From positions 1 through 43,224 of IMG/VR virus record IMGVR_UViG_3300032237_000972: 43,224 nt of DNA. The stretch is one strand, 5' to 3'. Position 1 is the first letter of the stretch. Each line of letters opens with the position of its first letter. The notes beneath the pieces were generated by a model. It was given only the letters and a program-made list of their open reading frames with translations, did not search any database and had not been told where the DNA came from. Positions 23,400 to 43,224 of the stretch are shown piece after piece. The translations under genes and the position numbers were made by a program. This stretch comes from a virus (Duplodnaviria; Caudoviricetes).

Positions 23400-23540
23400 A
23401 TGAATCAACCAATCACTACACCTTTGCCACAAAAGCCTGCACCAAAGCCGGCAAATGATACTGGAAGCATATCGGTAGAGGGTTTTATTCGTATATTTGA
23501 TCCAAATACCAAAGAGAAATTTGTGGAGAAACGAGCATGA
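23400..23540 (+). CDS. 46-aa microprotein not in the ORF track
   Basis: MNQPITTPLPQKPAPKPANDTGSISVEGFIRIFDPNTKEKFVEKRA*. It fills the gap exactly, has an ATGA overlap with the next gene, and its C-terminal half resembles that gene's N-terminus. Confidence 0.75.
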   Translation: MNQPITTPLPQKPAPKPANDTGSISVEGFIRIFDPNTKEKFVEKRA

Positions 23541-24185: not shown

Positions 24186-24207
24186 TACAAGGACGGAGTA
24201 ACTATAA

Positions 24208-25482: not shown

Positions 25483-25512
25483 CATTAAGAATTTAGGAAC
25501 TAGGAACAAATA

Positions 25513-26514: not shown

Positions 26515-26533
26515 CAGCAACAGCGTCTTGCCA

Positions 26534-26560
26534 AAAGCCCCGTAAGGGGCTTTACCTTTA
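26534..26560 (+). terminator. Intrinsic terminator-like hairpin ending the structural module
   Basis: AAAGCCCC-GTAA-GGGGCTTT (26534-26553): perfect 8-bp stem with GNRA tetraloop, then T-rich sequence; the T-tract is short. Confidence 0.75.
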
Positions 26561-26579
26561 GTACTTTTTCAAGTATAAT
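26551..26579 (+). promoter_or_regulatory. sigma70-type promoter for the modification operon
   Basis: TTTACC (26551-26556), 17 nt, TATAAT (26574-26579); ATG at 26586 with no SD. Confidence 0.65.
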
Positions 26580-26585
26580 AAACCT

Positions 26586-26891
26586 ATGAATACTGATAAC
26601 TTAATTGCACACGGTCGTGCCCGTTTTGATCATGCGGCCGCACGTCGCTTACTCAAAGAAAAGTATCAAGGTAAGCTAACATTTGCCCACGCCGGTGGTA
26701 TGTGGCTAGCCGGACCAGAATTGTTGGCCGCACTAGCTGCCTGCACTGGACCTACTAGCGTGTTGCTTGACTTATATGAAACGCCAGTTCAAGTAGTACC
26801 CAATACGTTTCGTGACTTGGTACGCAAACACTGGCAAGAACAAATGAATACTTGGCTAGTGGAATACGAACAATTATCTAAGAACAGATGA
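26586..26891 (+). CDS. Hypothetical protein, possibly tail-fibre-assembly-like
   Basis: 101-aa ORF, ATGA-coupled to the next gene; layout (helix, beta-hairpin, VLLDLYETPVQV, long C-terminal helix) loosely recalls DUF4376-type proteins. Confidence 0.5.
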   Translation: MNTDNLIAHGRARFDHAAARRLLKEKYQGKLTFAHAGGMWLAGPELLAALAACTGPTSVLLDLYETPVQVVPNTFRDLVRKHWQEQMNTWLVEYEQLSKNR

Positions 26892-27685
26892 CCACGGGCG
26901 CACTAATCTTTGCCTACAACAATGAACAGACAGACTATGTTGCTATGGCGGCGTGGACTGCTGAAAACATACGTAGACATTTAGGAATTCCAGTGGCGTT
27001 GGTTACAGATCGCCCTACCGAATTAAAGTTTGAGCAAGTAATTATACAGGCAACCAACGGCAACAACGGGCGTTGGTTTAGTGATTACGGAACTAATGTT
27101 GCATGGCATAATCAAACAAGAGCAAATGCTTACGAACTAACACCATGGAATCAAACACTAGTACTTGATGCCGATTATGTTGTGGCAAGTGATCAGTTAA
27201 AAAATGTACTTGCCACTAACGAAAATTTTTTAGCACATCGGTGGGCATACGACATAACCGGGCTTGATAATTTTAGTGGTCTTAATTATTTTGGCTCCTA
27301 TCATATGCCTATGTGGTGGGCTACTGTTATGATGTTTAGGCGTGGTGATCATGCTCGACTAGTATTTGAAACCATGGTTATGATTAGAGACAATTGGACG
27401 CACTATCGAAATATCTATAAAAACTCCAACGGAACATATCGCAACGATCATGCTCTCAGTATAGCACTTGGCGTGGTCAACGGACACACACTTGATCATG
27501 CTGGTATTCCATGGAACTTAGCAAGCCTAACTCCAGATCATCAATTAACACAATTGGCATCTGACCACTATCGCGTTGACTTTGTAAATTCAGACCAAAA
27601 TCGCCGGTGGATAGAATTACACAATCAAGACTTTCATGCCATGGGTAAGAAAACATTAGGAGAAATTGTTGCCAATCCTTGCTGA
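26888..27685 (+). CDS. GT-A fold nucleotide-sugar glycosyltransferase-like protein
   Basis: GALIFA N-terminal strand; RANAYELTPWNQTLVLDADY (DxD); RNDHALS; late HAMGK, as in GT8-like proteins. Confidence 0.75.
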   Translation: MTTGALIFAYNNEQTDYVAMAAWTAENIRRHLGIPVALVTDRPTELKFEQVIIQATNGNNGRWFSDYGTNVAWHNQTRANAYELTPWNQTLVLDADYVVASDQLKNVLATNENFLAHRWAYDITGLDNFSGLNYFGSYHMPMWWATVMMFRRGDHARLVFETMVMIRDNWTHYRNIYKNSNGTYRNDHALSIALGVVNGHTLDHAGIPWNLASLTPDHQLTQLASDHYRVDFVNSDQNRRWIELHNQDFHAMGKKTLGEIVANPC

Positions 27686-28394
27686 ACGTGGATACGTTAT
27701 TCCTGCCTTTGGCAATGAATATGTTAAGTGTGCTGAATTATTAAAACAAAGCATACTCAACTTTCATCCTACAGTTAACATTACGATTCTTACAACAGAA
27801 ATGTTGCCGTACGGAGACCAAGGCGGATACGCAAACGACTGGCAATGTCATTGGCTTAGTCCTTACAGACAGACAATTAAACTTGAAGCAGATATGATAT
27901 GTTCTAGTCCAATTGATTATTGGTGGACATTGTTTGAAAAGCGAGATGTTGTCGTTAGTCAAGGTGCTAGAACTTTTTATGATTGTCCTGCTGAGTCTAG
28001 ATTCTATCGTAAAATATTTGATGAGAATTCATTACCGGATGTGTATAATGCTATTACCTATTGGCGTGTTAGCCGCACGGCTACGGAATTTTTTAAATTA
28101 GTGCGTAACATATTTGAGCATTGGGCAGAATATAAACGGTTATTAAAGTTTCCTGACGAAGAGCCGACTACTGATGTGGTTTATGCCATGGCCGCTGTGA
28201 TTATAGGCGAAGAACAAGTAACCTTGCCCAAGGGATTAGGTCCTACTATTGTACACATGAAACAACATATCAATCGACTACAAACAGAAAATTGGACAAA
28301 AGAGTTAACATGGGAAAATAATCCTTTTAGGATTAATACTGTGGCGCAGTGGGGATTAGTACATTATCATATCAAGGATTGGCATTATGAGTGA
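27666..28394 (+). CDS. Second GT-A-like protein, paralog of the preceding gene (ExD variant)
   Basis: RGYVI; LSPYRQTIKLEADM aligns with LTPWNQTLVLDADY; PTTDVVYA; VHMK; VHYH. Start is TTG 27666 or 27669. Confidence 0.65.
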   Translation: MLPILAERGYVIPAFGNEYVKCAELLKQSILNFHPTVNITILTTEMLPYGDQGGYANDWQCHWLSPYRQTIKLEADMICSSPIDYWWTLFEKRDVVVSQGARTFYDCPAESRFYRKIFDENSLPDVYNAITYWRVSRTATEFFKLVRNIFEHWAEYKRLLKFPDEEPTTDVVYAMAAVIIGEEQVTLPKGLGPTIVHMKQHINRLQTENWTKELTWENNPFRINTVAQWGLVHYHIKDWHYE

Positions 28395-28731
28395 GATGAC
28401 CCCAGAAGAATTCTGGGAAATTTTACATGCGCCGGTAGAGGTTAGCCCTATATTTTATAGACTATACTATAACGATGATGGCACGCCTATTTGTTATAGC
28501 ATGGAGGACTTGCCAGGTAATTATATAGAGATAGATGCAGAAACATATCACAGAACTCCAGCAAACATTCGCATTGTTAACGGTAAATTAAAAGAAATAA
28601 AATTAGCAAGTTTAGTAAAAAAATTAGTACCAAGTGATTGTGGAACTTCATGCGATCCTAGAGATATCTGTATAGTAACCAACTCTCAACCAAATACCAA
28701 ATGGAGTATTAAAACATATGAAACAAATTGA
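28387..28731 (+). CDS. Hypothetical protein
   Basis: 114-aa ORF overlapping both neighbours, AAGGA SD; LPGNYIEIDAETY..IRIVNGKL loosely resembles tail-fibre assembly proteins. Confidence 0.55.
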   Translation: MSEMTPEEFWEILHAPVEVSPIFYRLYYNDDGTPICYSMEDLPGNYIEIDAETYHRTPANIRIVNGKLKEIKLASLVKKLVPSDCGTSCDPRDICIVTNSQPNTKWSIKTYETN

Positions 28732-29644
28732 TATTGCAGATTTAGATTGTGTATATCTCAGTTACGACGAACCACAAAAAGAAGAATTTTGGGTTAAAAT
28801 TAAAAACATAATTCCATGGGCGACCCGCGTCGATGGCGTTAAGGGATCTGATGCCGCGCACAAAGCAGCTGCTGCCGCTAGTACCACAGAAAGATTTATT
28901 CTTATTGATGGAGATAATTTTCCGTACCCTGAATTTTTTAATCAAACATTAGAATTCAAAGATGAAGAGTGGGAGTCTGCGGTGTATCGCTGGCGTGCCA
29001 AAAATAATATCAACGGCTTGATGTATGGCAATGGTGGTATTAGTTCCTGGACCAAAACATTTGTTAACAACATGCAAACTCACGAGAACACAGATGGAAC
29101 AGCAGAGAACGATGTAGAGTTTTGTTTCTACCCTAACTACTGGGCCATGCATGATTGTTTTAGCACTACGTTTCCAAATCAAAGTGAGTTTCATGCCTGG
29201 CGTGCCGGGTTTCGTGAAGGTGTAAAAATGTGTTTGAACAAAGGTACCAAGCCCAATGTCAACGAATTTAAAAATCAGGTACATCAACGCAACTTGGATC
29301 ACTTGACCATATGGCACAATATTGGACGCGATACAGAATATGGAATATGGGCTATTGCCGGAAGTCGTATGGGTACATACATGACCATGCTCACCGACTG
29401 GGACTATAAACAAGTACAAGACTTTATTGCATTGGAAGAATTATGGAAAACTGTAGAAACAAGTGATCCAGAGATACTAGCTGGGCGAGTTGCCGAAGAC
29501 CTAGATTCGCAGTTAGATCTTCCTATTACTATGTATGGGTCAGAAGAAAGCAAATTCTTTAAGTTTCACTATCGTAGTAACTGGCATAACCGAGGTATTA
29601 TGACTCGTGAAATGGATGTTATTAGGAGTCAAGAAGGTTGGTAA
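28718..29644 (+). CDS. GT-A-like glycosyltransferase domain protein
   Basis: DCVYLSYDEP...RVDGVKGSDAAHKAAA...FILIDGDN (DxD)...YGNGG...AWRAGFREGVKM; GGAG SD. Confidence 0.7.
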   Translation: MKQIDIADLDCVYLSYDEPQKEEFWVKIKNIIPWATRVDGVKGSDAAHKAAAAASTTERFILIDGDNFPYPEFFNQTLEFKDEEWESAVYRWRAKNNINGLMYGNGGISSWTKTFVNNMQTHENTDGTAENDVEFCFYPNYWAMHDCFSTTFPNQSEFHAWRAGFREGVKMCLNKGTKPNVNEFKNQVHQRNLDHLTIWHNIGRDTEYGIWAIAGSRMGTYMTMLTDWDYKQVQDFIALEELWKTVETSDPEILAGRVAEDLDSQLDLPITMYGSEESKFFKFHYRSNWHNRGIMTREMDVIRSQEGW

Positions 29645-30210
29645 AGAGATTATATCTTGATGGATGTAGTTTAACTTACGGTCAAGGTCTCGACCGTAAA
29701 GATTCTTTAGGAGCATTATTTGATACTCGTGGTGGGTATCAAGTTCTTGACTACTCAAGACCCGGTAAGAGCAACATGGCTATTGTGTTTGATACCTATC
29801 AACATTTTCGCAATTATGATACATTTGTATTAGGATTTACATATTCTTCAAGGTTTGGTTTAAAGTACAAAGATCAAAATTTAGATTTTTTTACAGGATT
29901 CCACGGGAGAGGGTCGGCTCTCGAAACAGAAACGCTTGATATTGCACAAACTGAAATGTACAAATATTTTTACTCTGTGTTTGGCTCTCCATATTGCGAT
30001 GATTTGAGTGATATGTTAATTGATACCTTGATTAGTTTTTTGATTTCACAAAACAAAAAAGTTGTCGGTTTTTCCTGGCAACAACGAAAAACAATTTGTC
30101 ATTTAGAATATCCCTTAATTGGTCCGTCTGAACGGTTTAACGACGGTCACTTAAATATCAAAGGCACTGAGCGTCTTTTTAATTTTCTACAAAATATTAT
30201 AAATGAATAA
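29638..30210 (+). CDS. SGNH/GDSL hydrolase-like protein 1
   Basis: LYLDGCSLTYG (block I Ser), PGKSN (block II), DGHLN (DxH). Confidence 0.7.
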   Translation: MVKRLYLDGCSLTYGQGLDRKDSLGALFDTRGGYQVLDYSRPGKSNMAIVFDTYQHFRNYDTFVLGFTYSSRFGLKYKDQNLDFFTGFHGRGSALETETLDIAQTEMYKYFYSVFGSPYCDDLSDMLIDTLISFLISQNKKVVGFSWQQRKTICHLEYPLIGPSERFNDGHLNIKGTERLFNFLQNIINE

Positions 30211-31606
30211 CAAAGGCGACGAAGTTACAACAGACTTTAAATCAAAGTTCTTAGGTGATGCAGAAAAGATGAAGGATATGTTAGGCCCAGCATTATGTCT
30301 AGCAAAATGGAAGCAAGTGAGTTTGCATTTGCCCACCGGGTTAAATAACAGTTGCTACCATCCTCCTTTACACGCTATACCTGCAGAGTTGTTAGCAGAC
30401 AATCCGTCAGCATTGCACAATACACCTTACAAAAAAGAACAACGCAAGATTATGTTACAGCAAGAAAGACCCACAGAGTGCGGTTACTGCTGGGCCATGG
30501 AAGATAACAATAAGTTAAGCGATAGACACTATCGTAGTGGCGAGCCATGGGCCGCTAAAGATTTTAACGCTATAATGAATAGCACAGGAGATGAAGATGT
30601 CAACCCCAGTTATGTTGAAGTTAATTTTAATCATGCTTGTAACCTTAAATGTAGTTATTGTAGTCCTCAGTTTAGTTCGAGTTGGCAACAAGAAGTGGAC
30701 GCTAGCGGAGGATATCCTACAAGCACTGTTCATAACGATCCTAGTCATTTTACTGGCAGCCGCCGCCCTATCCCCACTCGTGATCATAACCCTTATGTAG
30801 ATGCATTTTGGGCATGGTGGCCCACCTTGTATCCAGAACTAGAACACTTCCGCATGACCGGGGGAGAGCCGTTACTGGATAAGAATACCTATCGTGTGTT
30901 TGATTATGTACTTGCTAACCCTAAACCCAACTTACACTTAAATGTAACATCAAACTTTAGCGTAGATGAGAAGTCTTGGCAGAAGTACAAGGGCTATGTT
31001 AAGCAACTGTGTGAAGGTGAAAAGATTGAACACTTCATGCAGTTTGTTAGTTTAGACGCATGGGCCTTGCAAGCCGAATACATCCGCCACGGATTGGACT
31101 TTGCATTGCTATGGGATCGAGTAAATCAATTCTTAACAGAGATTCCTGGGCGTAATTCAATTACATTTATTATAACTATGAACAACTTGTCAGTCACAAC
31201 ACTAGACGCCCTGTTTGCGGGCATCCTAGGGCTTAGACACATTTACAGCGATACCTATCAACGTGTATGGTTTGATACTCCTGTGTTACGTACACCCACT
31301 TGGCAGAGCTTGCAGATACTACCAAACAGTTATGCTGATAAGTTAGAACACTTGTGGGCATGGATGCTTAAACAACAAGAAACCGAAGCAACACGATTCA
31401 AAGGATTTAAGGACTATGAAATTGCTCGGTTGGATCGTGATATTGCTTGGATGCGATCAGGCCAAGGCAAGGATCACACAAAAGACAAAGCAGACTTTTA
31501 TCGTTTCTTTGCAGAACATGACCGTAGACGTGGCACAGATTTTTTAACAACATTTCCAGAAATGACTGAGTTCTGGCGGCAATGCCAATACTACGCACAA
31601 CAATGA
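30203..31606 (+). CDS. Radical SAM enzyme 1 with N-terminal Twitch/SPASM-like domain
   Basis: CNLKCSYC (CxxxCxxC), TGGEPL; N-terminal CLAKW..SCYH..CGYCW. Confidence 0.9.
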   Translation: MNNKGDEVTTDFKSKFLGDAEKMKDMLGPALCLAKWKQVSLHLPTGLNNSCYHPPLHAIPAELLADNPSALHNTPYKKEQRKIMLQQERPTECGYCWAMEDNNKLSDRHYRSGEPWAAKDFNAIMNSTGDEDVNPSYVEVNFNHACNLKCSYCSPQFSSSWQQEVDASGGYPTSTVHNDPSHFTGSRRPIPTRDHNPYVDAFWAWWPTLYPELEHFRMTGGEPLLDKNTYRVFDYVLANPKPNLHLNVTSNFSVDEKSWQKYKGYVKQLCEGEKIEHFMQFVSLDAWALQAEYIRHGLDFALLWDRVNQFLTEIPGRNSITFIITMNNLSVTTLDALFAGILGLRHIYSDTYQRVWFDTPVLRTPTWQSLQILPNSYADKLEHLWAWMLKQQETEATRFKGFKDYEIARLDRDIAWMRSGQGKDHTKDKADFYRFFAEHDRRRGTDFLTTFPEMTEFWRQCQYYAQQ

Positions 31607-32748
31607 TAAACGGGCGACGATTAGTAAGCGACAATATGAGCGAAGTATTTGATATACTGCTGCCGTGGACTGACGAAAAGTTTTGGGACTTTAAAAGGGT
31701 TCGCTTACAACCAGGGAGCATTTACATATTTGGTCGGCAACACTTTTTAGATAACATAGCAATGATAAAAGAGTTAGCCGAAACTGGTGACTATACTTTT
31801 ATATTTGGAAATAGTGCCGAGGGTGCGTGGACACTAGAAAGTCAACTAAAACAACTACGAGTAGATGATCTAGTACGCAAAGGCAAGATACTTGTAATTG
31901 GCGGTGCTGATATATCTCCAGAATACAACATATTAACACACGAACATTTTCTTCCTAGGATATTGGACTACGAAGAAAACATAGCAGCGCAACAATACAC
32001 AGATGAAATATTCACCAAGACTGATAAACCATATAAGTTTTTATTTTTAAATGGGCGGGCACGTCCACATCGCAAATACCTGTACGAGCATTTCAAGCGC
32101 AACGGCCTACTTGATCAGAGCTTGTGGACCATGTTGGACAGCAAACCCACAATAGTACGGCACTTTACCATGGTTGAAAATCACATCAACATCATGGCCA
32201 CTCCGAGCGAGTTACGCCGCTTGCCGGATCAGTACGAAGTACCACAATACCGCGAACCTTTATTTGGTACTATCATTCCTGACAACTGTTTCCTTAAACA
32301 AGAGTTGTTCCGCAGAGAATGGGGCGAGATATATCTAACTCCAGAGCCCTACGTAGATACTTACTTTAGTCTAGTAACCGAAACCATCTGCGCTGAAAGT
32401 CTGTACAGTTTTAGAACAGAGAAAATGGCCAAGCCATTGGCAATAGGACATCCGTTTATTGTGGCCAGCAATGCAGGCTTTTATCGCGACCTGCACAACT
32501 TAGGATTTAAAACATTTGGACACGTGATAGATGAGTCATTTGATCTAATTGAGCATCATCAAGATCGTTGTGATCGTATTGTGGAAATAGTAAAGGATTT
32601 ATGTCAACAAGATCTTGCAAGTTTCCTTAGAGAGTGTTATACTGTATGTAAATACAATCAAGATCATCTTGCCCTATTACGTGATCAAGAACGTAAAAAC
32701 TTCCCTGAAAGATTTACTCAATACATTAATGAACGACCTAGAGTTTAA
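31603..32748 (+). CDS. Putative glycosyltransferase-like protein 1 (GT10/exostosin-like C-terminus)
   Basis: ATGA overlap favours start 31603; FLFLNGRARPHR, YFSLVTET, RTEKMAKPLAIGHPFIV, LGFKTF..IDESFD; the TEK motif recalls GT10 fucosyltransferases. Confidence 0.55.
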   Translation: MINGRRLVSDNMSEVFDILLPWTDEKFWDFKRVRLQPGSIYIFGRQHFLDNIAMIKELAETGDYTFIFGNSAEGAWTLESQLKQLRVDDLVRKGKILVIGGADISPEYNILTHEHFLPRILDYEENIAAQQYTDEIFTKTDKPYKFLFLNGRARPHRKYLYEHFKRNGLLDQSLWTMLDSKPTIVRHFTMVENHINIMATPSELRRLPDQYEVPQYREPLFGTIIPDNCFLKQELFRREWGEIYLTPEPYVDTYFSLVTETICAESLYSFRTEKMAKPLAIGHPFIVASNAGFYRDLHNLGFKTFGHVIDESFDLIEHHQDRCDRIVEIVKDLCQQDLASFLRECYTVCKYNQDHLALLRDQERKNFPERFTQYINERPRV

Positions 32749-34069
32749 ACAACTAGTACTAGACCCCAAGGGTACCTTTTGTGCTGCCAAATGGTACAAT
32801 GCCACCATCTGGTTAGGCTCGGGACAAACAACAAGTTGCCATCATCCTCCTGCACACGCAATAGATGTAGAAGCAATTAAAACAAATCCTAGTGCTATAC
32901 ACAATACACCAGAAAAGAAACTAGATCGGTTAATGATGCAGACCGAACAACGACCCAAAGGTTGTGAATACTGTTGGAAGATAGAAGACATAGGTCGCGA
33001 TGCTGTTAGCGACCGTGTATATAAAAGTAAAATTTACCCTATAGAGGCCCTTAATGAAGCATACACAAAAGATCACAGAGAAGATGTCAATCTTCGCACA
33101 CTTGAAATTGCATTCGATCGCACTTGCCAATTCGCTTGTAGCTATTGTAACCCTGCTTTCAGTAGCACATGGGTTAAAGACATACAACGCAACGGCGCCT
33201 ATGAGCGCCTGGTGTCTGATGGGCGTAACCATTTTACTCATAGTCACGATAGCAGTCAACTATACCGCTTTGGCGAAACGAATCCCTATGTTGAAGCATT
33301 TTTTAAGTGGTGGGAAACAGATCTCCACCAAACACTACAAGAATTAAGAATCACCGGCGGTGAGCCGTTGATGTCGGGCGAAACCTGGAAGCTAATTGAT
33401 TGGTTTAAGACCAATCAAGGTCGTAGTACTACTCGGTTAGCCATCAACAGTAACTTGGGCATGGATGATGTAAAATTACAAGAGTTTATTGCTAGAGTTG
33501 AGGATATACCGCATCTTGAAATCTATACCAGTATGGAAGCCATTGGTCAACCGGCAGAGTATATACGTGATGGTCTTGACTATGATCAATGGATACACAA
33601 TGTATCAGAACTATTAGAACATACGTCAATCAAGGCTGTTCATTGTATGGCAACTATCAATGCCCTATGCTTGGCTAGCTTGCCAGACCTACTGACTGAA
33701 TTAGTAAACTTAAAGCGGGTGTATGGTCGAGAGCGTGTGAGCTTTACACTAAATATTTTACGCTTTCCTAGCTTTCAAAGTCCTCTGGTATTACCGGAAT
33801 ATTTGCGCCGCACATTTGAATTGAATCTGACAGAGTGGCTGCGCAACCATCGTCACAATGTGTTGATGCACGAACATGAACTAAACCATTTAAGTAGATT
33901 GGTTGATTATTTAGACGTGGTTAAAACTCCGCACAGTGAAGCATTTGAACGGCCTAAATTGTTAAATGACTTTAAGCAATTTTATAGTCAATACGATCAA
34001 CGTAGAAATAAAAACTTTACGCAGGCATTTCCCTTATTAGCAGATTGGTATGACTCAATACAAGTATAA
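32729..34069 (+). CDS. Radical SAM enzyme 2 (close paralog of enzyme 1)
   Basis: CQFACSYC, TGGEPL; CAAKW..SCHH..CEYCW. ATG 32729 preferred because alignment with the paralogs starts there. Confidence 0.9.
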   Translation: MNDLEFKQLVLDPKGTFCAAKWYNATIWLGSGQTTSCHHPPAHAIDVEAIKTNPSAIHNTPEKKLDRLMMQTEQRPKGCEYCWKIEDIGRDAVSDRVYKSKIYPIEALNEAYTKDHREDVNLRTLEIAFDRTCQFACSYCNPAFSSTWVKDIQRNGAYERLVSDGRNHFTHSHDSSQLYRFGETNPYVEAFFKWWETDLHQTLQELRITGGEPLMSGETWKLIDWFKTNQGRSTTRLAINSNLGMDDVKLQEFIARVEDIPHLEIYTSMEAIGQPAEYIRDGLDYDQWIHNVSELLEHTSIKAVHCMATINALCLASLPDLLTELVNLKRVYGRERVSFTLNILRFPSFQSPLVLPEYLRRTFELNLTEWLRNHRHNVLMHEHELNHLSRLVDYLDVVKTPHSEAFERPKLLNDFKQFYSQYDQRRNKNFTQAFPLLADWYDSIQV

Positions 34070-35309: not shown

Positions 35310-35974
35310 GATTTAAGTTTATAAAGTTTAAGTTTGATGATTATTTCTCAACCATATACAATCATAGATCTATTGTGGGCTGTGCTGGAGATTGGATAGT
35401 AACTGGTTGTAGCCACACAGCCGGGTTTGGGGTAGAAGACAATGAAATTTATACAAATTTGTTAAGTCAACACTATACTCGTCCTGTACATAATCTAGCC
35501 TTGGGCATGAGCAATCATGCCATATGTAGACACAACATACAGCTATGGTATGAACAAGTGGGCAAGCCTGGCCTAGTTATTGTACAGTGGCCCAATCCGG
35601 TGCGCCGCACAAGTTGGAACAATGACGCAGGAGTAACTGTTAGTATAAGCCAAGATGATGCTATACTGCAAACTATGTTACGAGCCGGCGAACAAAATCT
35701 TTACGCAGATTGGTTAGACAGTGTAATTACACTAAATCAATTTTGTAGAGCCACAAAAACGCCCATAATTAATATATTGTTCGAAACACTCTCACCCAAA
35801 TATTGTGCCATTTTACAACGGCATAATATAATTGTGCATGATGATAAAAAACTGCCGGGCCAAAGCTGGGTGTTTGACAGTGCAGGAACCGACGGCCAAC
35901 ACCATAGTGCCCGGTGTCACCAACTGTGGGCAGAAAGATTACAAGGAATAGTTAATGAAGTTACCACACCCTAA
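35306..35974 (+). CDS. SGNH hydrolase-like protein 2
   Basis: VTGCSHTAGFG, NLALGMSN, IVQWP, DGQH. Confidence 0.7.
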   Translation: MRFKFIKFKFDDYFSTIYNHRSIVGCAGDWIVTGCSHTAGFGVEDNEIYTNLLSQHYTRPVHNLALGMSNHAICRHNIQLWYEQVGKPGLVIVQWPNPVRRTSWNNDAGVTVSISQDDAILQTMLRAGEQNLYADWLDSVITLNQFCRATKTPIINILFETLSPKYCAILQRHNIIVHDDKKLPGQSWVFDSAGTDGQHHSARCHQLWAERLQGIVNEVTTP

Positions 35975-37175
35975 ATTCTGTGTGTTGCCTTGGGTTAGTT
36001 TAGAAACCAGTCCTATTGGTACTGTAAGACCTTGTTGCCTGGCTGAATACGAGCTCAAAGACGCAACAGGTACAAAGTTTAATCTAGCAACTGCTGAATT
36101 TAGTACCATACAAAACAGCCAGGACATGCAGGCGTTACGTGAGCAGTTCTTGGCAGGAGACCAACCAGAAACATGCCGCAAGTGCTGGCGTGAAGAACGG
36201 TCAGGACGTACCAGCAAGCGTATGCACACACTAGATCGACTCAAGCACATGCTACCCGATCAAGCATGGACACGAGATGCTAAACCTCTAATGTTCTTGG
36301 ACCTAAAGCTGGGCAACATCTGTAACCTTAAGTGTCGTATATGCGGGTCATGGAGTTCAAGTACCTTTGCCACAGAAGAACTGGCCAACCTGGGACCAGA
36401 CCAAGATAAAAAGTCCAGCTTTCATTATACCATGCTGAAACAAGGTGCATGGCCCAGAGAGAATCCAGTGTTCTGGCGGGAACTAGCAGGTGTAGCAGAT
36501 CAAATACGTTACTTGGAGTTTACAGGTGGCGAACCATTTATGATTGAAGAGCACTTTGAACTCCTAAGAAGCCTGGTCAGCTCCGGTCTAGCTCCTAACA
36601 TTGAAATACACTACAACACCAATGGCACACAGTGGCCTCGAGATGCAGCCAGTATTTGGAAATCGTTTAAGACAGTTGAAATTGCATTCAGCATAGACGA
36701 TGTAGGTGCCCGCTTTGAATACCAACGTACCAATGCAGTATGGACCGAAGTAAACGAGAATATCACACGTTTCCGCGAACTACGTCGTCACTTGCCCAAT
36801 ATACAACTACAAGTATGCAGTACTATCAATGTATTCAACGTCAGTTATCTAGAAGAACTAAGCCATTGGATAGAAGCACAGCAGTTTGACTATGTATACT
36901 GGAACATGATGCACGAAGCCTATTACTTTAGTATCAGTACCTTGCCAGAACAAGCCAAACGAGTTGTAGCACAACGCTTAGAACTAGCCCGGGTAAACGC
37001 AGCAGACACAGCAGAGTTCGAGCGTGTGCGTGACTTTATGATGGCAGCTCCCAGTCTGGATGGAGATATCTTACGCATGAAGATAGCAGACTTAGACCGT
37101 CGGCGTGGCACAGACCTAAGACAAGTTGAGCCAGAGTTTGCCACGTTGATCAATTATGCAGGGCCGCATGGCTAA
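35955..37175 (+). CDS. Radical SAM enzyme 4 with N-terminal Twitch/SPASM-like domain
   Basis: CNLKCRIC, TGGEPF, YNTNGT; CVLPW..PCC..CRKCW; AAGGA SD. Confidence 0.9.
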   Translation: MKLPHPKFCVLPWVSLETSPIGTVRPCCLAEYELKDATGTKFNLATAEFSTIQNSQDMQALREQFLAGDQPETCRKCWREERSGRTSKRMHTLDRLKHMLPDQAWTRDAKPLMFLDLKLGNICNLKCRICGSWSSSTFATEELANLGPDQDKKSSFHYTMLKQGAWPRENPVFWRELAGVADQIRYLEFTGGEPFMIEEHFELLRSLVSSGLAPNIEIHYNTNGTQWPRDAASIWKSFKTVEIAFSIDDVGARFEYQRTNAVWTEVNENITRFRELRRHLPNIQLQVCSTINVFNVSYLEELSHWIEAQQFDYVYWNMMHEAYYFSISTLPEQAKRVVAQRLELARVNAADTAEFERVRDFMMAAPSLDGDILRMKIADLDRRRGTDLRQVEPEFATLINYAGPHG

Positions 37176-38136
37176 ATTTACACTGCTCACAAGTCCTGGT
37201 TCGACATACCTGTATTTGACCTTGCCCTGGGTACAACCGCATTACCAGGATTATTTTGATATAGAACCATACTATGCGGATAAAACCTACAATACACAAG
37301 ATTCAGCTATCTTGGTTGATTATACAGAACAACTAGAACGACCCCAGTGGATGCAGCAACGGCAAGCCGAGGGCTATCGTGTTGCGGTAGAACACCTGGG
37401 CGACAGTGATGTCGAACGTACCAGCACAGTAGACCAGGGTGTTTTAACCCTGCGTTGCCCAAACTGGATGTGGTATAATGCAGCGTGGGAATGGCAATGG
37501 TACGGCTTTGATCGGTATCAGCCCAGTAGAGCGTACCAGTCGGCGTTTCTGTTACAGATGAATTTACAACGCTGGCACAGAGATCGAATCGTTGAAGATT
37601 TACAGCCCCTACTTGCCGAAGCCTTGTACAGCTATTGTGCTCGGGGTCGAGAGTTACCGGGTAAGCCACCACCACACATACCTTGGCGCGGATACATGAA
37701 CCCTGAATGGTACAACTCAACTCCTTACAGTGTGGTAGCAGAAAGCTACATGCGCTCAACCAAGATAAATTTGGGACTAACTTATAGAACAGAAGTAAGT
37801 GAAAAGATCTTCAAACCCATGCTGGGGCAACAGCCTTTTATAGTTTATGGCAGCGTTGACACACTTAGATATCTCAAACGCGAAGGCTTTGTGACATACG
37901 ATAACTTGTGGAACGAAGAGTACGATGGTACCTTGGATAATCGAGCAAGATTTGACCAGGTCACTGGTGTGGTACAGCAAGCAGTTAAAGAACACAACTA
38001 TCGAACATTCCACATAGACGCAGAAACTCAACGCAGAATTGATCACAATCACGCACAACTGTTTGATCATACCTTAGTTAAACAACGCTTCCAGGCAGAA
38101 GTTGTAGGAGATATTGTTGGGTGGTTCAACCAATGA
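37168..38136 (+). CDS. Putative glycosyltransferase-like protein 2 (paralog of 31603-32748)
   Basis: FLLQMNLQRWHR, YSVVAES, VSEKIFKPMLGQQPFIV, EGFVTYDNLWNEEYD. Start is 37168 or 37156. Confidence 0.55.
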   Translation: MAKFTLLTSPGSTYLYLTLPWVQPHYQDYFDIEPYYADKTYNTQDSAILVDYTEQLERPQWMQQRQAEGYRVAVEHLGDSDVERTSTVDQGVLTLRCPNWMWYNAAWEWQWYGFDRYQPSRAYQSAFLLQMNLQRWHRDRIVEDLQPLLAEALYSYCARGRELPGKPPPHIPWRGYMNPEWYNSTPYSVVAESYMRSTKINLGLTYRTEVSEKIFKPMLGQQPFIVYGSVDTLRYLKREGFVTYDNLWNEEYDGTLDNRARFDQVTGVVQQAVKEHNYRTFHIDAETQRRIDHNHAQLFDHTLVKQRFQAEVVGDIVGWFNQ

Positions 38137-38789
38137 AACAGGTGTACGTATGCGGCGATAGTTTTAGTACACCCGATCCGGAATACGGTACTGTGTGGGT
38201 GGACTTATTACAACATAAACTAGGTGCAGATTACTCGATAGTTAACAACAGTAGTGTGGCGGCCAGCAATTTACTAGTGGCTGTACAAGTGGATAATGCT
38301 ATTAAAAATCATGCAGACTTTGTCATAGTCTTGGCCACTGCTTGTACACGCAGCGAAGCCCTGGTTCAACCTGCAACTGATCAAGCCCTAATGACTAGAT
38401 TTAATCAACACGAACTGGTCAGCTACAGTGTATATAGACCTTATAGATCGCATTTAACTGCTAGAGATCAAGAAGCAATATCGGATTTTCATCGCCGCTA
38501 CACAGACTTAGAGTTAAATATCTTTAGAGATCATTGCATCTTGTTGGGTATCTTAACAAGACTACAACAGGCCGGTATTCCGTTTTTGTTTGATCAGGGT
38601 GGATTTGAGCACCCTCGATTTGGTGGCCAGGCGGGATACTTTGACGAGTTTGCAGCACAGCGCAGTGCTCTTAATGTATGGGACTACGGTACAACACAAG
38701 ATGAACGCCCGTACTACCACATCAAAGAGGCTACAACACATGTCAGAATATCAGACTACTATTATACAGAAATAACACAACGCATATGA
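38133..38789 (+). CDS. SGNH hydrolase-like protein 3
   Basis: VYVCGDSFS, AASN, late PYYH; ATGA overlaps at both ends. Confidence 0.65.
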   Translation: MKQVYVCGDSFSTPDPEYGTVWVDLLQHKLGADYSIVNNSSVAASNLLVAVQVDNAIKNHADFVIVLATACTRSEALVQPATDQALMTRFNQHELVSYSVYRPYRSHLTARDQEAISDFHRRYTDLELNIFRDHCILLGILTRLQQAGIPFLFDQGGFEHPRFGGQAGYFDEFAAQRSALNVWDYGTTQDERPYYHIKEATTHVRISDYYYTEITQRI

Positions 38790-40075
38790 ACGACAAGTTA
38801 TGTCTAGCACCCTGGACACATACATATCTAAGTCCACAAACAGAACGGCGCTTGTGCTGTGCCAGCAGAGAACCTGCCACCAGCTTTCGACAGTATATAG
38901 ATACAGAAGCAGGTACCGGCACATACATGCCTGTTGCTTTAGAAGCGCACTGGAACTCGGAACGTATGCGAGCGGTACGACTACAAATGTTAGCAGGAGA
39001 AGCTCCGCCCGAGTGTGAAGTATGCAACAATAAACTGCTCAACACCGACGTGTATCGTGACTACTTTAACCAGATGTTTGGACATCGACGTGACGAACTC
39101 TTGTCAAGTACACAAGCAGATGGTAGTACCAATATACTGCCTGTATCGTGGGACTATCGCTTCACGAACCTATGTAACTTTAAATGCCGTATGTGTGGTG
39201 ATATGCTGAGTAGTTCGTGGGAGTCAGAACAACGAGTAAACAACATGGTCAACTGGACTGATCCTAAGAACGGGTGGATGGTGCCCGAAGTACGTGAACA
39301 AATAACCCGTTTCCAAGACACGCAAATTGAACAAGAGTTCTCAGACGCTGTAGAACAACACAGAGTGGAAGAAGTGTACTGGGTCGGAGGAGAACCGCTC
39401 ATGTACGAACAGCACTGGCGCTACATGCAGCGCATAATAGAACTAGGAGACGGACCCAGAGTATATGCTAGATACAACACTAACCTTAGTAGGATTAGGT
39501 ACCGCGGCATTCACCTTTTTGATGATATACTTGGCGGCATTAGAGATTGGCAGGTATGCGCCAGTCTTGACGGAACCGGAAGAATTGGAGAATACATCCG
39601 TACAGGACTCAACTATGCAGAATGGCTTGACAACTTTAGAGAAGGATTGAAGTCGGCTAAGAACCGTAGACAAATGCGTATAGACTTTACACTTACACTA
39701 CCGGGCCTGTTTGAAGTACAGAATATACAACGCTTGGCCGAAGAACTCAATGTAGACATCTTGGCCAAGGTCATATTCAGTTTTAGCCCAGATATCTTAC
39801 TAAGCCCGCTAGCACTACCTAGGCCGATCTTAGATCGTAAGATAGCAGAAGTAATACCCGGCACAACCGGCGCCCTACGTGATGTGCTTAATCAGCTAGG
39901 TACCAGGCCCACGTTTACTGAACAATGGCCTCACGGCGAAGCCGCAGCCGCCGGACTGGTTCAAGGTAAACAGCGTATTTTAGAACTAGAACGCATACGT
40001 GGTGATACATATACACTAGCCGACATATTACACGAGGATCCAGAAATATATGAGTGGTACCACGCAATTGCTTGA
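38786..40075 (+). CDS. Radical SAM enzyme 5 with N-terminal Twitch/SPASM-like domain
   Basis: CNFKCRMC, VGGEPL, YNTN; CLAPW..LCC..CEVC. Confidence 0.9.
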   Translation: MNDKLCLAPWTHTYLSPQTERRLCCASREPATSFRQYIDTEAGTGTYMPVALEAHWNSERMRAVRLQMLAGEAPPECEVCNNKLLNTDVYRDYFNQMFGHRRDELLSSTQADGSTNILPVSWDYRFTNLCNFKCRMCGDMLSSSWESEQRVNNMVNWTDPKNGWMVPEVREQITRFQDTQIEQEFSDAVEQHRVEEVYWVGGEPLMYEQHWRYMQRIIELGDGPRVYARYNTNLSRIRYRGIHLFDDILGGIRDWQVCASLDGTGRIGEYIRTGLNYAEWLDNFREGLKSAKNRRQMRIDFTLTLPGLFEVQNIQRLAEELNVDILAKVIFSFSPDILLSPLALPRPILDRKIAEVIPGTTGALRDVLNQLGTRPTFTEQWPHGEAAAAGLVQGKQRILELERIRGDTYTLADILHEDPEIYEWYHAIA

Positions 40076-41114
40076 TAACATTGTTATCACACTACGGAAT
40101 GACAGCACCGGCGACTGTATGCCGGTGTACATCGACGTGATGGATAACACCTTGAGCCGTAGATGGTTAGCGGCCCTAAACGCAATACTGCATAACAATC
40201 TACACCTGGAAAAGAACTACTGCTGGATGGGTTGGACTGAATCACCGCGCACAGGACCTTACTTGCTGGAGCAAGTTAACCTGACTATTCAAGCCATTAA
40301 TCGTGCTGATATAGGTTACCACATAGATGATTGGTTTAGCTACCATGGATGCATGGACACTGAACACAACATACAACATGACAGGTTTAATCAGCTGCAT
40401 CGTTACTTTGAAGACCTACAGGGTACTAGTGGGTCTATGAGTGAATACTGGACCGCTGCGGACGACGCTACACGCTGGCATATACGTCAGCTTAATTTGT
40501 TGTGTCATGAGTTTGAATCATGGGCCTTGGCCTGGCGTAAGTTGCACACAGCACCCGAATGGCAGCGCCCTAGTCAGCTCATGTGTTGGCTCGGCGCACC
40601 ACGCTTTGAACTTGATGTAGAAGACTTGGAGCTGTTTGGCATAGAAACCATTAACCGTAGCTTGGGTGGAGTGTATGTGGGTGTTAACAAGGCCATAGGC
40701 AAACACCATTGGGAAGTGTTCTCGGACGAGGGCGGTGACAGCAGACTAGCTGAACTAACAACTACAACCTTGCGTACACAAACCGAAGCAGCCGGAGACT
40801 TTGACATAGAGTGGGCTAGAGATCCTGGTGCATATGAGTGGCAACGTCGGAAACTGGCAGAGTTCCGCACATGGTTAATTCGCAACGGTTTTGACCCGGC
40901 TGATCCCGCACTCACCATAGGACACCCTAGGGTAGCACAGGTGGACCTGATGAGAACATTTGGCACAGAAGATTACCGTTACATATGGAGCCGGTTAAAT
41001 ACTCACCTAAACGTGGTTGCTGTAGCAACTAGTCATGCCCGAGCAGAATACCCTTACTCGTGGCAGGATGCAGACTACATGCAACAACAAATACAATCAC
41101 TTAAAAAAGGATAA
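40050..41114 (+). CDS. Hypothetical protein (His/Trp-rich, possibly metal-binding)
   Basis: 354-aa ORF in the operon; NQLHRYFE and NLLCHEFE helical HxxE motifs. Start may be TTG 40068. Confidence 0.65.
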   Translation: MSGTTQLLDNIVITLRNDSTGDCMPVYIDVMDNTLSRRWLAALNAILHNNLHLEKNYCWMGWTESPRTGPYLLEQVNLTIQAINRADIGYHIDDWFSYHGCMDTEHNIQHDRFNQLHRYFEDLQGTSGSMSEYWTAADDATRWHIRQLNLLCHEFESWALAWRKLHTAPEWQRPSQLMCWLGAPRFELDVEDLELFGIETINRSLGGVYVGVNKAIGKHHWEVFSDEGGDSRLAELTTTTLRTQTEAAGDFDIEWARDPGAYEWQRRKLAEFRTWLIRNGFDPADPALTIGHPRVAQVDLMRTFGTEDYRYIWSRLNTHLNVVAVATSHARAEYPYSWQDADYMQQQIQSLKKG

Positions 41115-41118
41115 TAAC

Positions 41119-41220
41119 ATGAAATGGATTCGTAACTTAATCAATCGTGTACGCTTGGAAATACGCTATCGTAAGAAGCTCAAAGAACTACGCAAGCGAG
41201 ACCCATTTATATACAAATGA
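41119..41220 (+). CDS. 33-aa basic peptide ending DPFIYK
   Basis: AAGGA SD at 41107-41111, ATG 41119, ATGA overlap with the carbamoyltransferase; MKWIRNLINRVRLEIRYRKKLKELRKRDPFIYK. Confidence 0.75.
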   Translation: MKWIRNLINRVRLEIRYRKKLKELRKRDPFIYK

Positions 41221-42707
41221 AGTTACCGTATACGTTAGGTATCAGTGGCGGGTATCATGATGCGGCTGCTACTGTAATAGACTGTCAAGGTAACATAGCA
41301 TTTGCCGGGCATTCAGAACGCTATAGCAAACTGAAGAACGATGCTAATCTAAGTGATGGCTTAATAAGCGAACTGTGTGACTATGAGTTTGATACCATAG
41401 CATACTATGAGCGGCCTTGGCTACACAACCTACAGCAACTATATTCAGGACAACGTCCTACTGGAGCTTGGACCACAGGTGGTGCCATTAGACAACAGCT
41501 AGGCGCTTGGTATAGTCGTCCTGCCGGTAGAGAACTAGCATATGGCCATCACTTGAGCCATGCTGCTGCAGGGTTCCAAACCAGTCCATTTGATAGGGCT
41601 ACAGTGGTTGTTATAGATGCAGTAGGTGAGTTTGATACAGTAACTATATGGGCGGCAGAATATGATAGAACAGGTACGGCAACTTATAAGCGGTTATGGA
41701 GCCAACACTACCCACACAGCATAGGTCTGTTCTACAGTGCGGTAACAGCCCGCTTAGGACTTAGACCCTTAGATGAAGAATACATCACCATGGGCATGGC
41801 TGCCTACGGTAGCACTATGTCCAGTGTGTTAATGCACAGCGAACTTGTAGCGAGTGTACGTGATGTACGCTTCAAGCAGAACCTACATGCTGGTCTAGAT
41901 GACCGGGCTTTTAACGGCTACACTGACGCAGACATTGCAGCAGGAGCACAAAGAATAGCAGAAGAATTGATATATAGTGTAATGCAACGTGCCAGAGCGT
42001 TTGGCTGGAGTAGCAACTTGGTATACCAGGGCGGTGTTGCCCTGAACTGTTTGGCCAATCGTAACTTAGGTGAATATTTTGAAAACATTTGGATCATGCC
42101 TTGCCCTGGCGACGCTGGTAGTAGTCTTGGTGCTGCTGCCCTTGCGTACGGTCAACGTGTTAATTGGACCAACGCTTACCTGGGTAGAAACATACCCGGT
42201 GAGTATCCCGTCCATGCCCTTGTCGATCGTTTGGTTCACGATCGAATCGTTGGAGTTGCTTCCGGTCGTGCTGAATTTGGGCCTAGAGCCTTGGGCAACA
42301 GAAGCCTCCTCGCCGACCCTAGAGGACCAGATATAAAGGATCAAGTAAATGCGATCAAACGTAGACAACAATTCAGACCATTTGCGCCGGTCATTCTGGA
42401 GGAGTATGTTGACGACTATTTTGACATGCCTGGTGGTTTCGTTACTAGTAGGTATATGCAAGTCGTCGGTCGTTGCCGGAATCCTGATGTATATCCTGCT
42501 ATCCATCACTATGACGGCACTAGTAGGATACAGACAGTGGCTCGTGATAACTCGGGCATTAGGCGACTCTTAGAAGCCTGGTATCGAGCAACAGGTTGCC
42601 CTATGCTGCTTAACACTAGCTTGAATATACGTGGAGAACCCATGGTCAACGACAGAACAGATGCCGATCGTTTTGAACAGCTATACGGTGTCCGGGTCTG
42701 TAGTTAA
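41217..42707 (+). CDS. O-carbamoyltransferase, NodU/CmcH/TobZ family
   Basis: LGISGGYHDAAA, ERYS..K, HHLSHAA, VIDAVGE, MGMAAYG, GGVALNC, PGDAGSSLGAA, EFGPRALGNRSLLADP, FRPFAP, DGTSRIQTV, LLNTSLN..GEP. Confidence 0.95.
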   Translation: MKLPYTLGISGGYHDAAATVIDCQGNIAFAGHSERYSKLKNDANLSDGLISELCDYEFDTIAYYERPWLHNLQQLYSGQRPTGAWTTGGAIRQQLGAWYSRPAGRELAYGHHLSHAAAGFQTSPFDRATVVVIDAVGEFDTVTIWAAEYDRTGTATYKRLWSQHYPHSIGLFYSAVTARLGLRPLDEEYITMGMAAYGSTMSSVLMHSELVASVRDVRFKQNLHAGLDDRAFNGYTDADIAAGAQRIAEELIYSVMQRARAFGWSSNLVYQGGVALNCLANRNLGEYFENIWIMPCPGDAGSSLGAAALAYGQRVNWTNAYLGRNIPGEYPVHALVDRLVHDRIVGVASGRAEFGPRALGNRSLLADPRGPDIKDQVNAIKRRQQFRPFAPVILEEYVDDYFDMPGGFVTSRYMQVVGRCRNPDVYPAIHHYDGTSRIQTVARDNSGIRRLLEAWYRATGCPMLLNTSLNIRGEPMVNDRTDADRFEQLYGVRVCS

Positions 42708-43224
42708 TGGCTCAGTTTACCCCAGTTGATGATCGCGGTCGCTTATGGTCGGTTCAAGACCTATTACCCGCAGAACTACTAGCGGATGTACTCAGCACAC
42801 CTTGGATGGATCTAGCATGGAGTCCTGGTGGCGGACAAGAAACCTGGGCACGTAGGCAAATAGCGTGGGACGATGCTCGAGCACAACACCTGGGCAGTTA
42901 TATCTCTGCACAATTACCTGAAATCAACAGTGCGTTAGGTACTGAGTTTACACAGTCAGGAGGGCACTGGTGGGTAGATCAACCGGGCTTTACTGTGGCC
43001 CTACACACAGACGGACATGTGCCCAACGCCATGCAGATCTATTGGTGTGTACCGGGGCCAGAATGGGGTACAGGATTTTATCGTTACAAGCGTCAGGACT
43101 CTTTAATGTATCAAAGCGTGAGTAGGCCCAACACAGGCTACATCATGCTTAATCATCTGGAAGACAACGGTAGTCAACCCTTGATATGGCATGCCATGCT
43201 AAACCCTGTACCAGAGGGCACAAT
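42707..43224 (+). CDS. 2OG-Fe(II) oxygenase-like protein, 3'-truncated, not in the ORF track
   Basis: TAATG overlap; open to the window end: MAQFTPVDDRGRLW...WWVDQPGFTVALHTDG..MQIYW..GTGFY..PNTGYIMLN..WHAM, giving an HxD...H facial triad. Confidence 0.7.
   Translation, partial: MAQFTPVDDRGRLWSVQDLLPAELLADVLSTPWMDLAWSPGGGQETWARRQIAWDDARAQHLGSYISAQLPEINSALGTEFTQSGGHWWVDQPGFTVALHTDGHVPNAMQIYWCVPGPEWGTGFYRYKRQDSLMYQSVSRPNTGYIMLNHLEDNGSQPLIWHAMLNPVPEGT

Follow-up and report, generated by a model that had tools for sequence, protein, structure and literature searches.

A conserved operon of chaperone-like, glycosyltransferase-like and radical SAM genes in the tail region of a T4-like jumbo phage and its possible role in virion-protein glycosylation

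The virus record IMGVR_UViG_3300032237_000972 (Duplodnaviria; Caudoviricetes), analysed here as one stretch of 43,224 nucleotides (nt) that we refer to as the window, contains a T4-like baseplate and tail region with every gene on the + strand. From position 26586 to the window end, an operon follows in which a fixed core of two small chaperone-like and three glycosyltransferase (GT)-like genes precedes a tailoring block with five radical S-adenosylmethionine (SAM) enzymes, SGNH-like proteins and an O-carbamoyltransferase. We consider it fairly probable that this operon glycosylates a virion protein and modifies the glycan by radical, amino and carbamoyl chemistry. The most likely acceptor is the Thr/Ser-rich protein of 333 amino acids (aa) that is encoded just upstream and that one of the chaperone-like proteins is predicted to bind.

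Operon layout and conservation among relatives

Gene content, gene order and conservation of the operon could be read directly from the window and its relatives. The initial annotation had described at least 19 co-oriented, overlapping genes; the same number was counted here on the + strand, with 17 of the 18 junctions overlapping by 1-26 nt and the remaining one being a 4-nt gap. This count takes in a 33-aa peptide (41119-41220), and the second radical SAM gene is counted from the ATG at 32729. The two genes upstream, the promoter-like site and the operon are as follows.

24208..25482, + strand: 424-aa virion- or fibre-like protein, its C-terminal domain resembling an intramolecular chaperone (phrog_14394 'virion structural protein', E 4e-10; PF11962 sub-threshold, E 6e-5; TAAATA motifs upstream)
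25513..26514, + strand: 333-aa Thr/Ser-rich tail-region protein (composition, synteny, complex model)
26532..26579, + strand: GC-rich hairpin with promoter-like -35/-10 elements (sequence; conservation in relatives)
26586..26891, + strand: 101-aa protein of putative DUF4376 fold (ESM Atlas, AlphaFold2 model, BFVD matches)
26888..27685, + strand: 265-aa GT-A/GT8-like protein, invariant D-x-D (paralogue of the 242-aa gene)
27666..28394, + strand: 242-aa GT8-like (glycogenin-like) protein, invariant E-x-D (profile against PDB)
28387..28731, + strand: 114-aa protein, putative Tfa-like N-terminal domain (ESM lead, structure matches, complex model)
28718..29644, + strand: 308-aa GT-A-like protein, invariant DGD (sub-threshold PF00535)
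29638..30210, + strand: 190-aa SGNH-like protein, a variable gene (SGNH profiles)
30203..31606, + strand: N-twitch radical SAM 1, 467 aa (NF033640, 314.6 bits)
31582..32748, + strand: 388-aa protein, weakly GT10-like, ET..F.TEK motif (large unnamed family; motif alignment)
32729..34069, + strand: N-twitch radical SAM 2, likely ATG start, longest open reading frame (ORF) from TTG 32615 (NF033640, 298.6 bits)
34050..35309, + strand: N-twitch radical SAM 3, 419 aa (NF033640, 384 bits)
35306..35974, + strand: 222-aa SGNH-like protein, a variable gene (SGNH profiles)
35955..37175, + strand: N-twitch radical SAM 4, 406 aa (NF033640, 331.5 bits)
37156..38136, + strand: 326-aa paralogue of the 388-aa, weakly GT10-like protein (BLASTP E 5e-8)
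38121..38789, + strand: 222-aa SGNH-like protein with GDS motif, without Asp before the final His (SGNH profiles)
38786..40075, + strand: N-twitch radical SAM 5, 429 aa (NF033640, 273.8 bits)
40050..41114, + strand: 354-aa conserved protein, no family match (alignment; position in relatives)
41119..41220, + strand: 33-aa basic peptide ending RDPFIYK (kept beside the carbamoyltransferase)
41217..42707, + strand: O-carbamoyltransferase of the TobZ/NovN/GdmN family (PF02543, PF16861, PDB matches)
42707..43224, + strand: 2-oxoglutarate (2OG)-Fe(II) oxygenase-like gene, accessory, cut by the window end (HxD...H motif only)

Relatives were collected with two queries. Among 440 IMG/VR stretches, 438 relatives of the 308-aa protein were counted, and the top 80, on contigs of up to 354 kb, were kept; 81 loci were examined, 6 of them too short and 75 evaluable. 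The 333-aa protein gave 518 IMG/VR matches, of which the best 80 were fetched, 18 being too short and 62 evaluable. Both samples consist of the closest matches and are thus biased towards near relatives. All five core genes are present in each of the 62 evaluable loci of the 333-aa gene, and the 101-, 265- and 242-aa genes lie upstream of the 308-aa gene in all 75 evaluable loci collected with the 308-aa protein, including Ralstonia phage RsoM2USA. In 77 of 80 loci the next gene 5' of the 101-aa gene is the 333-aa gene. A 114-aa gene occurs in 80 of 81 loci, and RsoM2USA has a 184-aa gene at that position. Next after the core follows a homologue of the first radical SAM gene (50 of 51 of the 308-based loci with enough flank); loci L009-L011 show the core without a radical SAM block within their visible, shorter flank. 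SGNH and GT10-like genes vary between loci. The synteny of a GT-GT-x-GT core beside the 333-aa gene, which the initial annotation had named as a check, holds in these samples.

Queried with the core GTs, a set of 50,697 annotated phage records gave RsoM2USA (343,806 bp) as the sole match. The phage of the window is a member of a T4-like clade of about 320-350 kb that is related to RsoM2USA; five near-complete genomes of relatives are referred to as G001-G005 below.

A gene often inserted 3' of the 242-aa gene and 5' of the 114-aa gene encodes a basic protein of 68-104 aa with a C-x4-C-x2-C motif (L004:2513-2779 and some 20 further loci). In RsoM2USA, a nucleotide-sugar epimerase/dehydratase gene lies directly 3' of the tail-sheath gene, inside the structural cluster (L081:13600-14574). 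Four operon-type contigs (L163, L164, L165 and L166) are contained in GTDB metagenome-assembled genomes labelled Haliscomenobacter, Lishizhenia and Pacearchaeota; the gene block is of the phage type in three of them and related to it in the fourth. A bacterial or archaeal host as suggested by these labels was set aside, and the contigs are read as likely mis-binned phage DNA.

The chaperone-like proteins and the 333-aa protein

The initial annotation took the operon to consist of enzymes throughout. This does not hold for the 101-aa and 114-aa genes, which appear chaperone-like instead. The nearest named ESM Atlas cluster of the 101-aa protein is DUF4376 at 0.89, which is a lead. Its AlphaFold2 (AF2) model (predicted local distance difference test, pLDDT, 92.5) matched DUF4376 proteins of BFVD at ranks 3-7 (TM score 0.53-0.60, probability 0.98-1.0, E 0.02-0.04); a VIA search of the same model returned generic helical hairpins (best Z 7.3) and was uninformative. 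For the 114-aa protein the nearest named ESM clusters are Caudo_TAP at 0.77-0.79, likewise only a lead. Among 48,161 solved chains, the top match of its AF2 model (pLDDT 90.2) was the Mu fibre chaperone 5yvq_B (Z 3.2, rmsd 9.2, 62 aligned), followed by a chain of 162 aa from the fibre entry of Pam3, 7ypx_a (Z 3.0, rmsd 2.4, 49 aligned). Three BFVD proteins were matched by both models, as is expected if the two proteins are the halves of a two-domain chaperone. No fused or longer form of the two domains was found, which is weak evidence. In tested fibre chaperones DUF4376 is the C-terminal half, and their N-terminal strands were modelled against the fibre (PMC10579305). According to the models, the 101-aa and 114-aa proteins are likely the helical and the beta halves of a split tail-fibre-assembly chaperone. 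The two GT8-like genes sit between them.

The presumed client is the 333-aa protein, which contains 32% Ser+Thr (family mean 30%). Adjacency of the operon to this gene is as initially described, and the protein, then called a fibre, is a putative fibre and virion component. The 114-aa chain was scored in a joint fold with three others, namely the 333-aa protein and the GTs of 242 and 308 aa. The score was 0.62, versus 0.00 for the best of three controls and 0.00 after replacement of the 333-aa chain; the score mark, which 116 of 157 solved pairs and 2 of 215 mismatched ones attain, is only roughly applicable to a four-chain job. The runs share at least 51% of contacts, with a partner pLDDT of at least 61. 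The best predicted contacts are formed by the invariant W59 of the 333-aa protein with F9 (nearly invariant) and I12 of the 114-aa protein, whose predicted binding region comprises residues 2-59. It is unlikely that the model recalls a solved complex, since the 333-aa family is without a PDB match. These predictions support binding of the 114-aa protein to the 333-aa protein. No confident contact of the 114-aa chain with either GT chain was listed, unnamed residues being uncertain and evidence neither way, and the model is silent on an action of the GTs upon the 333-aa protein.

The 424-aa protein, with 22% Ser+Thr, is a possible second glycan acceptor. Further upstream (8933-23386) the window encodes a baseplate/tail-region protein of 4817 aa that weakly matches FG-GAP and CBM5/12. 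Its counterpart in G001 is 4855 aa long; the one in RsoM2USA, with 2540 aa, has been detected in virions (PMC8504454). A small ORF of about 46 aa (23400-23540) lies 3' of a TAAATA motif, overlaps the start of a 206-aa gene and resembles the N-terminus of its product; relatives carry similar ORFs of 50-57 aa. No RNA holder was listed for window positions 24200-32800.

Glycosyltransferase-like and tailoring genes

Profile and structure searches, as the initial annotation had proposed for each ORF, upheld the radical SAM, carbamoyltransferase and SGNH genes, and gave assignments of moderate to weak strength for its five GT-like genes. The profile of the 242-aa family matched glycogenin (GT8) in the PDB with E 2.8e-4 over about 100 positions. 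No solved structure comes closer to the GT8-like profile than glycogenin, an enzyme that glycosylates proteins, which favours a protein target. The 265-aa gene is a paralogue of the 242-aa gene (hhalign probability 99.6); the acidic motif is DxD in the former and ExD in the latter protein, invariant in both, and PF01501 was matched by neither. The 308-aa protein matched PF00535 (GT2) at E 0.0094, under the cut-off, and has an invariant DGD. Both the 388-aa and the 326-aa protein fall into a family that counts at least 3228 unnamed clusters, and they appear weakly GT10-like: their profile aligned to seven GT10 sequences at one motif only (P 0.0025, probability 12%; P 0.04-0.49 for six control profiles), and PF00852 was unmatched. 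PDB profile searches were unproductive for the 265-aa, 308-aa, GT10-like and 333-aa families, and member-wise Pfam scans returned scattered weak matches only.

The GT-fold proteins of the core could also be non-catalytic parts of the virion, for instance sugar-binding fibre tips held by the Tfa-like proteins, with the tailoring genes acting elsewhere. The ExD instead of DxD in the 242-aa protein would fit such a role, as would the finding that some Tfa proteins remain on the fibre (PMC10579305). Yet the metal and nucleotide motifs are invariant and the promoter is of a non-structural type, and we regard this explanation as very improbable.

All five radical SAM genes named in the initial annotation exceed the curated cut-off of NF033640 (N_Twi_rSAM, 170 bits) with 274-384 bits. 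Each protein has N-terminal cysteines before CxxxCxxC and GGEP; a SPASM match is located at the N-terminus in three of the five. All five are mutually 21-32% identical. G001-G005 contain 12-21 matches per genome, 8-16 of them above the cut-off; many of these lie among replication and packaging genes and some beside SGNH genes. The isolated Vibrio phage K566 (255 kb) has four N-twitch-like radical SAM genes (L082:11965-18701) and is a possible cultured source of this family.

The three SGNH-like genes, also noticed initially, match a local SGNH profile, and a profile of 73 SGNH-like relatives matches GDSL/TesA structures (E 8e-6). GDS block I and the C-terminal His are present in these genes, two of which are irregular at the triad Asp. 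The carbamoyltransferase is certain, with PF02543 and PF16861 above cut-off and PDB matches of E 1e-48 to 4e-34. Of the two enzymes to which it had been likened, it is of the TobZ type; NodU itself was ruled out by the equivalog NF041651, to which it scores 128 bits instead of the more than 1000 required. The initially proposed 2OG oxygenase retains a conserved HxD...H motif and has no Pfam match.

Of 317 matches to the carbamoyltransferase 80 were fetched, 58 of them with 9 kb downstream. A 354-aa gene lies 5' of it in 56 of 65 loci; scans of Pfam, NCBIfam and PHROG-type profiles gave no family match for its product. The 2OG oxygenase-like gene is found 3' in 4 of the 58 relatives. The 33-aa peptide is encoded at 75 of the 80 loci, its C-terminal half nearly invariant and without a meaningful Pfam match; from this pattern it is likely an accessory subunit of the carbamoyltransferase, and we presume a likeness to SxtK/DUF5989. 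Small partner genes of a carbamoyltransferase have a precedent in SxtJ/SxtK (PMC2679770). A nearly invariant peptide beside five radical SAM genes might alternatively be a precursor of the RiPP type (ribosomally synthesised and post-translationally modified peptide), modified by these enzymes and the carbamoyltransferase. Against this stands, besides the SxtJ/SxtK precedent, that the peptide tracks the carbamoyltransferase and is absent from the fetched region of RsoM2USA, where a radical SAM gene is present and the carbamoyltransferase is not. We attach hardly any weight to a precursor role.

Downstream of the carbamoyltransferase, the 58 relatives carry genes for a DegT aminotransferase (52), a nucleotide-sugar epimerase/dehydratase (49), further GT10-like proteins (47) and an amidinotransferase (26) that matches inosamine-phosphate amidinotransferase with E 1e-10. 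These genes are mostly on the opposite strand. A protein of 600-1000 aa with repeated Trp/Pro/Tyr-rich units and a C-terminal 308-like GT domain (e.g. L146:15544-17742) is encoded downstream in 57 of the 58 loci. A Pfam scan of G001, covering 198 of 427 ORFs (165-1000 aa, previously unassigned), identified MetK, two UDP-glucose dehydrogenase-like genes, GT2, GT8 and methyltransferases; TauD/Asp-hydroxylase dioxygenases are also present in this genome. The combination of clustered GTs and a nucleotide-sugar pathway, as in the Megavirinae, is thus found in the relatives. Sugar chemistry is well supported by the predicted nucleotide-sugar genes downstream and the gene content of G001.

Such sugar chemistry could also lead to a diffusible aminosugar or aminocyclitol metabolite that is made by the tailoring half independently of the five-gene core. 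Twitch radical SAM enzymes, DegT, amidinotransferase and a TobZ-like enzyme together resemble the enzyme set of aminoglycoside pathways. L009-L011 have the core but, as far as their flanks are visible, no radical SAM block, and the fetched region of Vibrio phage K566 contains the four radical SAM genes and none of the core. On the other hand, no transporter or resistance gene was recognised, the tailoring genes are translationally coupled to the core, and RsoM2USA keeps one radical SAM gene between two GT genes. A metabolite is improbable in our view.

Expression, proposed function and comparison with known systems

The operon was initially placed behind one promoter. A promoter-like site, TTTACC-17-TATAAT (26551-26579), is carried on the 3' arm of a GC-rich hairpin. 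In a scan of the window alone such sites are at chance level (47 versus 44.8 in shuffles); of 63 distinct upstream sequences from relatives, however, 43 keep hairpin and TTTAC[CT]-17-TATAAT, 6 are late-like and 14 other, as compared with 2 of 62 control starts that have the conserved pattern. The first ATG follows the -10 element by only 6 nt (5-7 nt in relatives), so that the first operon gene is likely leaderless. In G001, the sigma-70-type pattern lies upstream of 26 of 411 ORFs, which mostly encode small hypothetical proteins and include no structural gene, whereas TAAATA is found before several structural genes, the amidinotransferase gene and three dispersed radical SAM genes. The operon is thus likely switched on before the structural genes in the clade of the window, and likely late in another clade. 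TAAATA lies within 40 nt of 67 of the 411 ORFs of G001 (L167-L184), in 33 of these at most 8 nt from the ATG; leaderless late mRNAs thus seem common in this clade.

A sigma-70-type promoter would suit enzymes that hypermodify phage DNA with an edited glycan, the chaperone halves only assembling the fibre. Phage GTs often glycosylate DNA (PMC12619734), G001 has FolE and QueD homologues (L171:3373-8231), and weak QueC-like matches occur in three of the five genomes. However, the thymidylate-synthase-type family PF00303 is present in none of the five near-complete relatives (10 of 14 in the control), ThyX is present in G001, and a ThyA gene found near the cluster in 22 of 80 loci adjoins a DHFR-like gene and looks ordinary. 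DpdA was found in 0 of 5 genomes (weak control), and neither QueC nor DpdA was detected in G001. A search for Tet/JBP dioxygenases gave 0 of 5 genomes and was without any working control; four-base palindrome counts of the window were uninformative. The GT genes are moreover placed between the chaperone-like genes and never apart from the 333-aa gene. We hold DNA hypermodification, one of two targets the initial annotation listed as alternatives, to be unlikely.

The other was the host surface: the operon might remodel a host glycan or glycosylate a host protein, e.g. for superinfection exclusion or counter-defence. SGNH proteins, GT10-like proteins and carbamoyl chemistry are typical of surface polysaccharides, and the promoter is of an early type. 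Still, the operon lacks any membrane or export protein; its 19-residue hydropathy maximum of 1.53 indicates no membrane segment, as opposed to the multi-pass membrane proteins of Gtr/Oac serotype conversion. The fixed linkage to a structural gene and the predicted binding to its product also point away from the host, to which we give only a small chance.

Several observations weigh against virion-protein glycosylation as well. The Tfa-fold match of the 114-aa protein is weak (Z about 3; Foldseek E 5.7), and PF14301 and PF02413 matched neither small protein. The 333-aa family, besides its lack of a PDB match, gave weak PHROG matches in just 2 of 46 members, and the ten virion bands identified for RsoM2USA include none from ORF349-355, and hence not the 333-aa homologue ORF355, in the available part of PMC8504454. 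The conservation of the predicted interface does not differ significantly from the rest (p 0.06 and 0.54), and the complex job predicted no contact between a GT and the target. A chaperone of the 333-aa protein might also be encoded together with enzymes that have another target. Many further radical SAM genes of the relatives lie far from tail genes, so that members of NF033640 need not serve the 333-aa target. The predominance of the sigma-70-type over the late-like pattern upstream of the operon and its absence before structural genes of G001 weigh against a purely late role, though late expression is tolerated. Overall, the initial interpretation of a glycan tailored for a virion target is partly supported: synteny, the nucleotide-sugar genes of the relatives and the predicted complex of the 114-aa and 333-aa proteins speak for it, and the glycan is deduced from gene content.

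If the operon glycosylates the 333-aa protein, the chaperone halves would hold the nascent protein in the cytoplasm, and the co-translated GT8-like pair together with the 308-aa GT would put the first sugars on its Ser and Thr residues. GT10-like proteins would extend the chain. Amino and guanidino nucleotide sugars could come from the epimerase/dehydratase, DegT aminotransferase and amidinotransferase that relatives encode just past the window end. By analogy to BtrN, a twitch enzyme, the five radical SAM enzymes may act on sugar carbons by oxidation or inversion; carbamoyl groups would be added by the carbamoyltransferase with the 33-aa peptide and acyl groups by the SGNH proteins. A fixed five-gene core with variable tailoring genes would give clade-specific glycans. 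Going further, and with considerable doubt, we envisage that a jumbo-phage clade turned a fibre-assembly chaperone into a two-part glycosylation scaffold, and that its tail appendages receive a coat of guanidino-, amino- and carbamoyl-sugars via aminoglycoside-like radical chemistry with 8-16 paralogues of the NF033640 family.

If this is true, the virion would have a variable chemical coat across a widespread jumbo-phage clade, whose relatives are abundant (438 and 518 IMG/VR matches). The split-chaperone link provides a candidate acceptor and a six-gene minimal set, which makes the operon directly testable. Virion glycosylation is already known from mycobacteriophages and amoebal giant viruses; our literature search returned no account of a pathway of this kind in jumbo phages from aquatic habitats, nor of this operon. 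The moraphage paper PMC12619734 does not mention radical SAM, carbamoyl or RsoM2USA in its available part, and the terms 'jumbo', 'tail' and 'radical SAM' are absent from the available part of a preprint on viral carbohydrate-active enzymes (10.64898/2026.08.04.742344).

The five radical SAM proteins are members of NF033640, for which the literature search gave no paper assigning a reaction and to whose substrates the operon points. The relatives carry 8-16 members above the cut-off in each of five phage genomes. A marine T4-like genome with 12 radical SAM genes has been described, with no pathway proposed in the available text (PMC5332604). Aminoglycoside tailoring by BtrN, TobZ and StrB1 offers a further comparison, with PDB homology for the carbamoyltransferase and for the amidinotransferase of the relatives. 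BtrN performs twitch-cluster radical SAM chemistry on an aminocyclitol (PMC9012708); the twitch domain of the operon enzymes is N-terminal, and the resemblance is drawn as an analogy. RsoM2USA ORF349-355 (MG752970) have the same order of 333-aa homologue, 101-aa homologue, GT, GT, small gene, GT and radical SAM, but there is one radical SAM, accompanied by a second GT, the fetched region contains no carbamoyltransferase, and the genes are annotated as hypothetical. Mu Tfa (PF02413, 5YVQ) and the DUF4376 chaperones of the Alteromonas phages V22 (gp27) and A5 (gp9; PMC10579305) share with the operon a predicted likeness in the fold of both halves, weak for the 114-aa protein, the position directly behind a Thr-rich tail-region gene and the predicted binding. 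In the operon, however, each domain has its own gene, their order is reversed, two GT8-like genes intervene, and neither domain is matched at the level of hidden Markov models.

To our knowledge, glycosylating mycobacteriophages have a few GTs and no tailoring cascade. The theme that would be shared with them is the presence of glycans on virion proteins of a tailed phage, in their case reportedly on the C-termini of capsid and tail-tube proteins (Freeman et al. 2023, as cited in PMC12619734 and PMC12582341). The fibril-glycosylation clusters of the Megavirinae likewise combine virus-encoded GTs with nucleotide-sugar pathways and make rare amino-sugars for virion appendages (PMC10117803). They belong to eukaryotic giant viruses, radical SAM, carbamoyl and chaperone parts are unmentioned in the available part of that paper, and the operon is known from its genes alone. 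By analogy, the operon likely works like these fibril-glycosylation clusters and like the virion glycosylation of mycobacteriophages.

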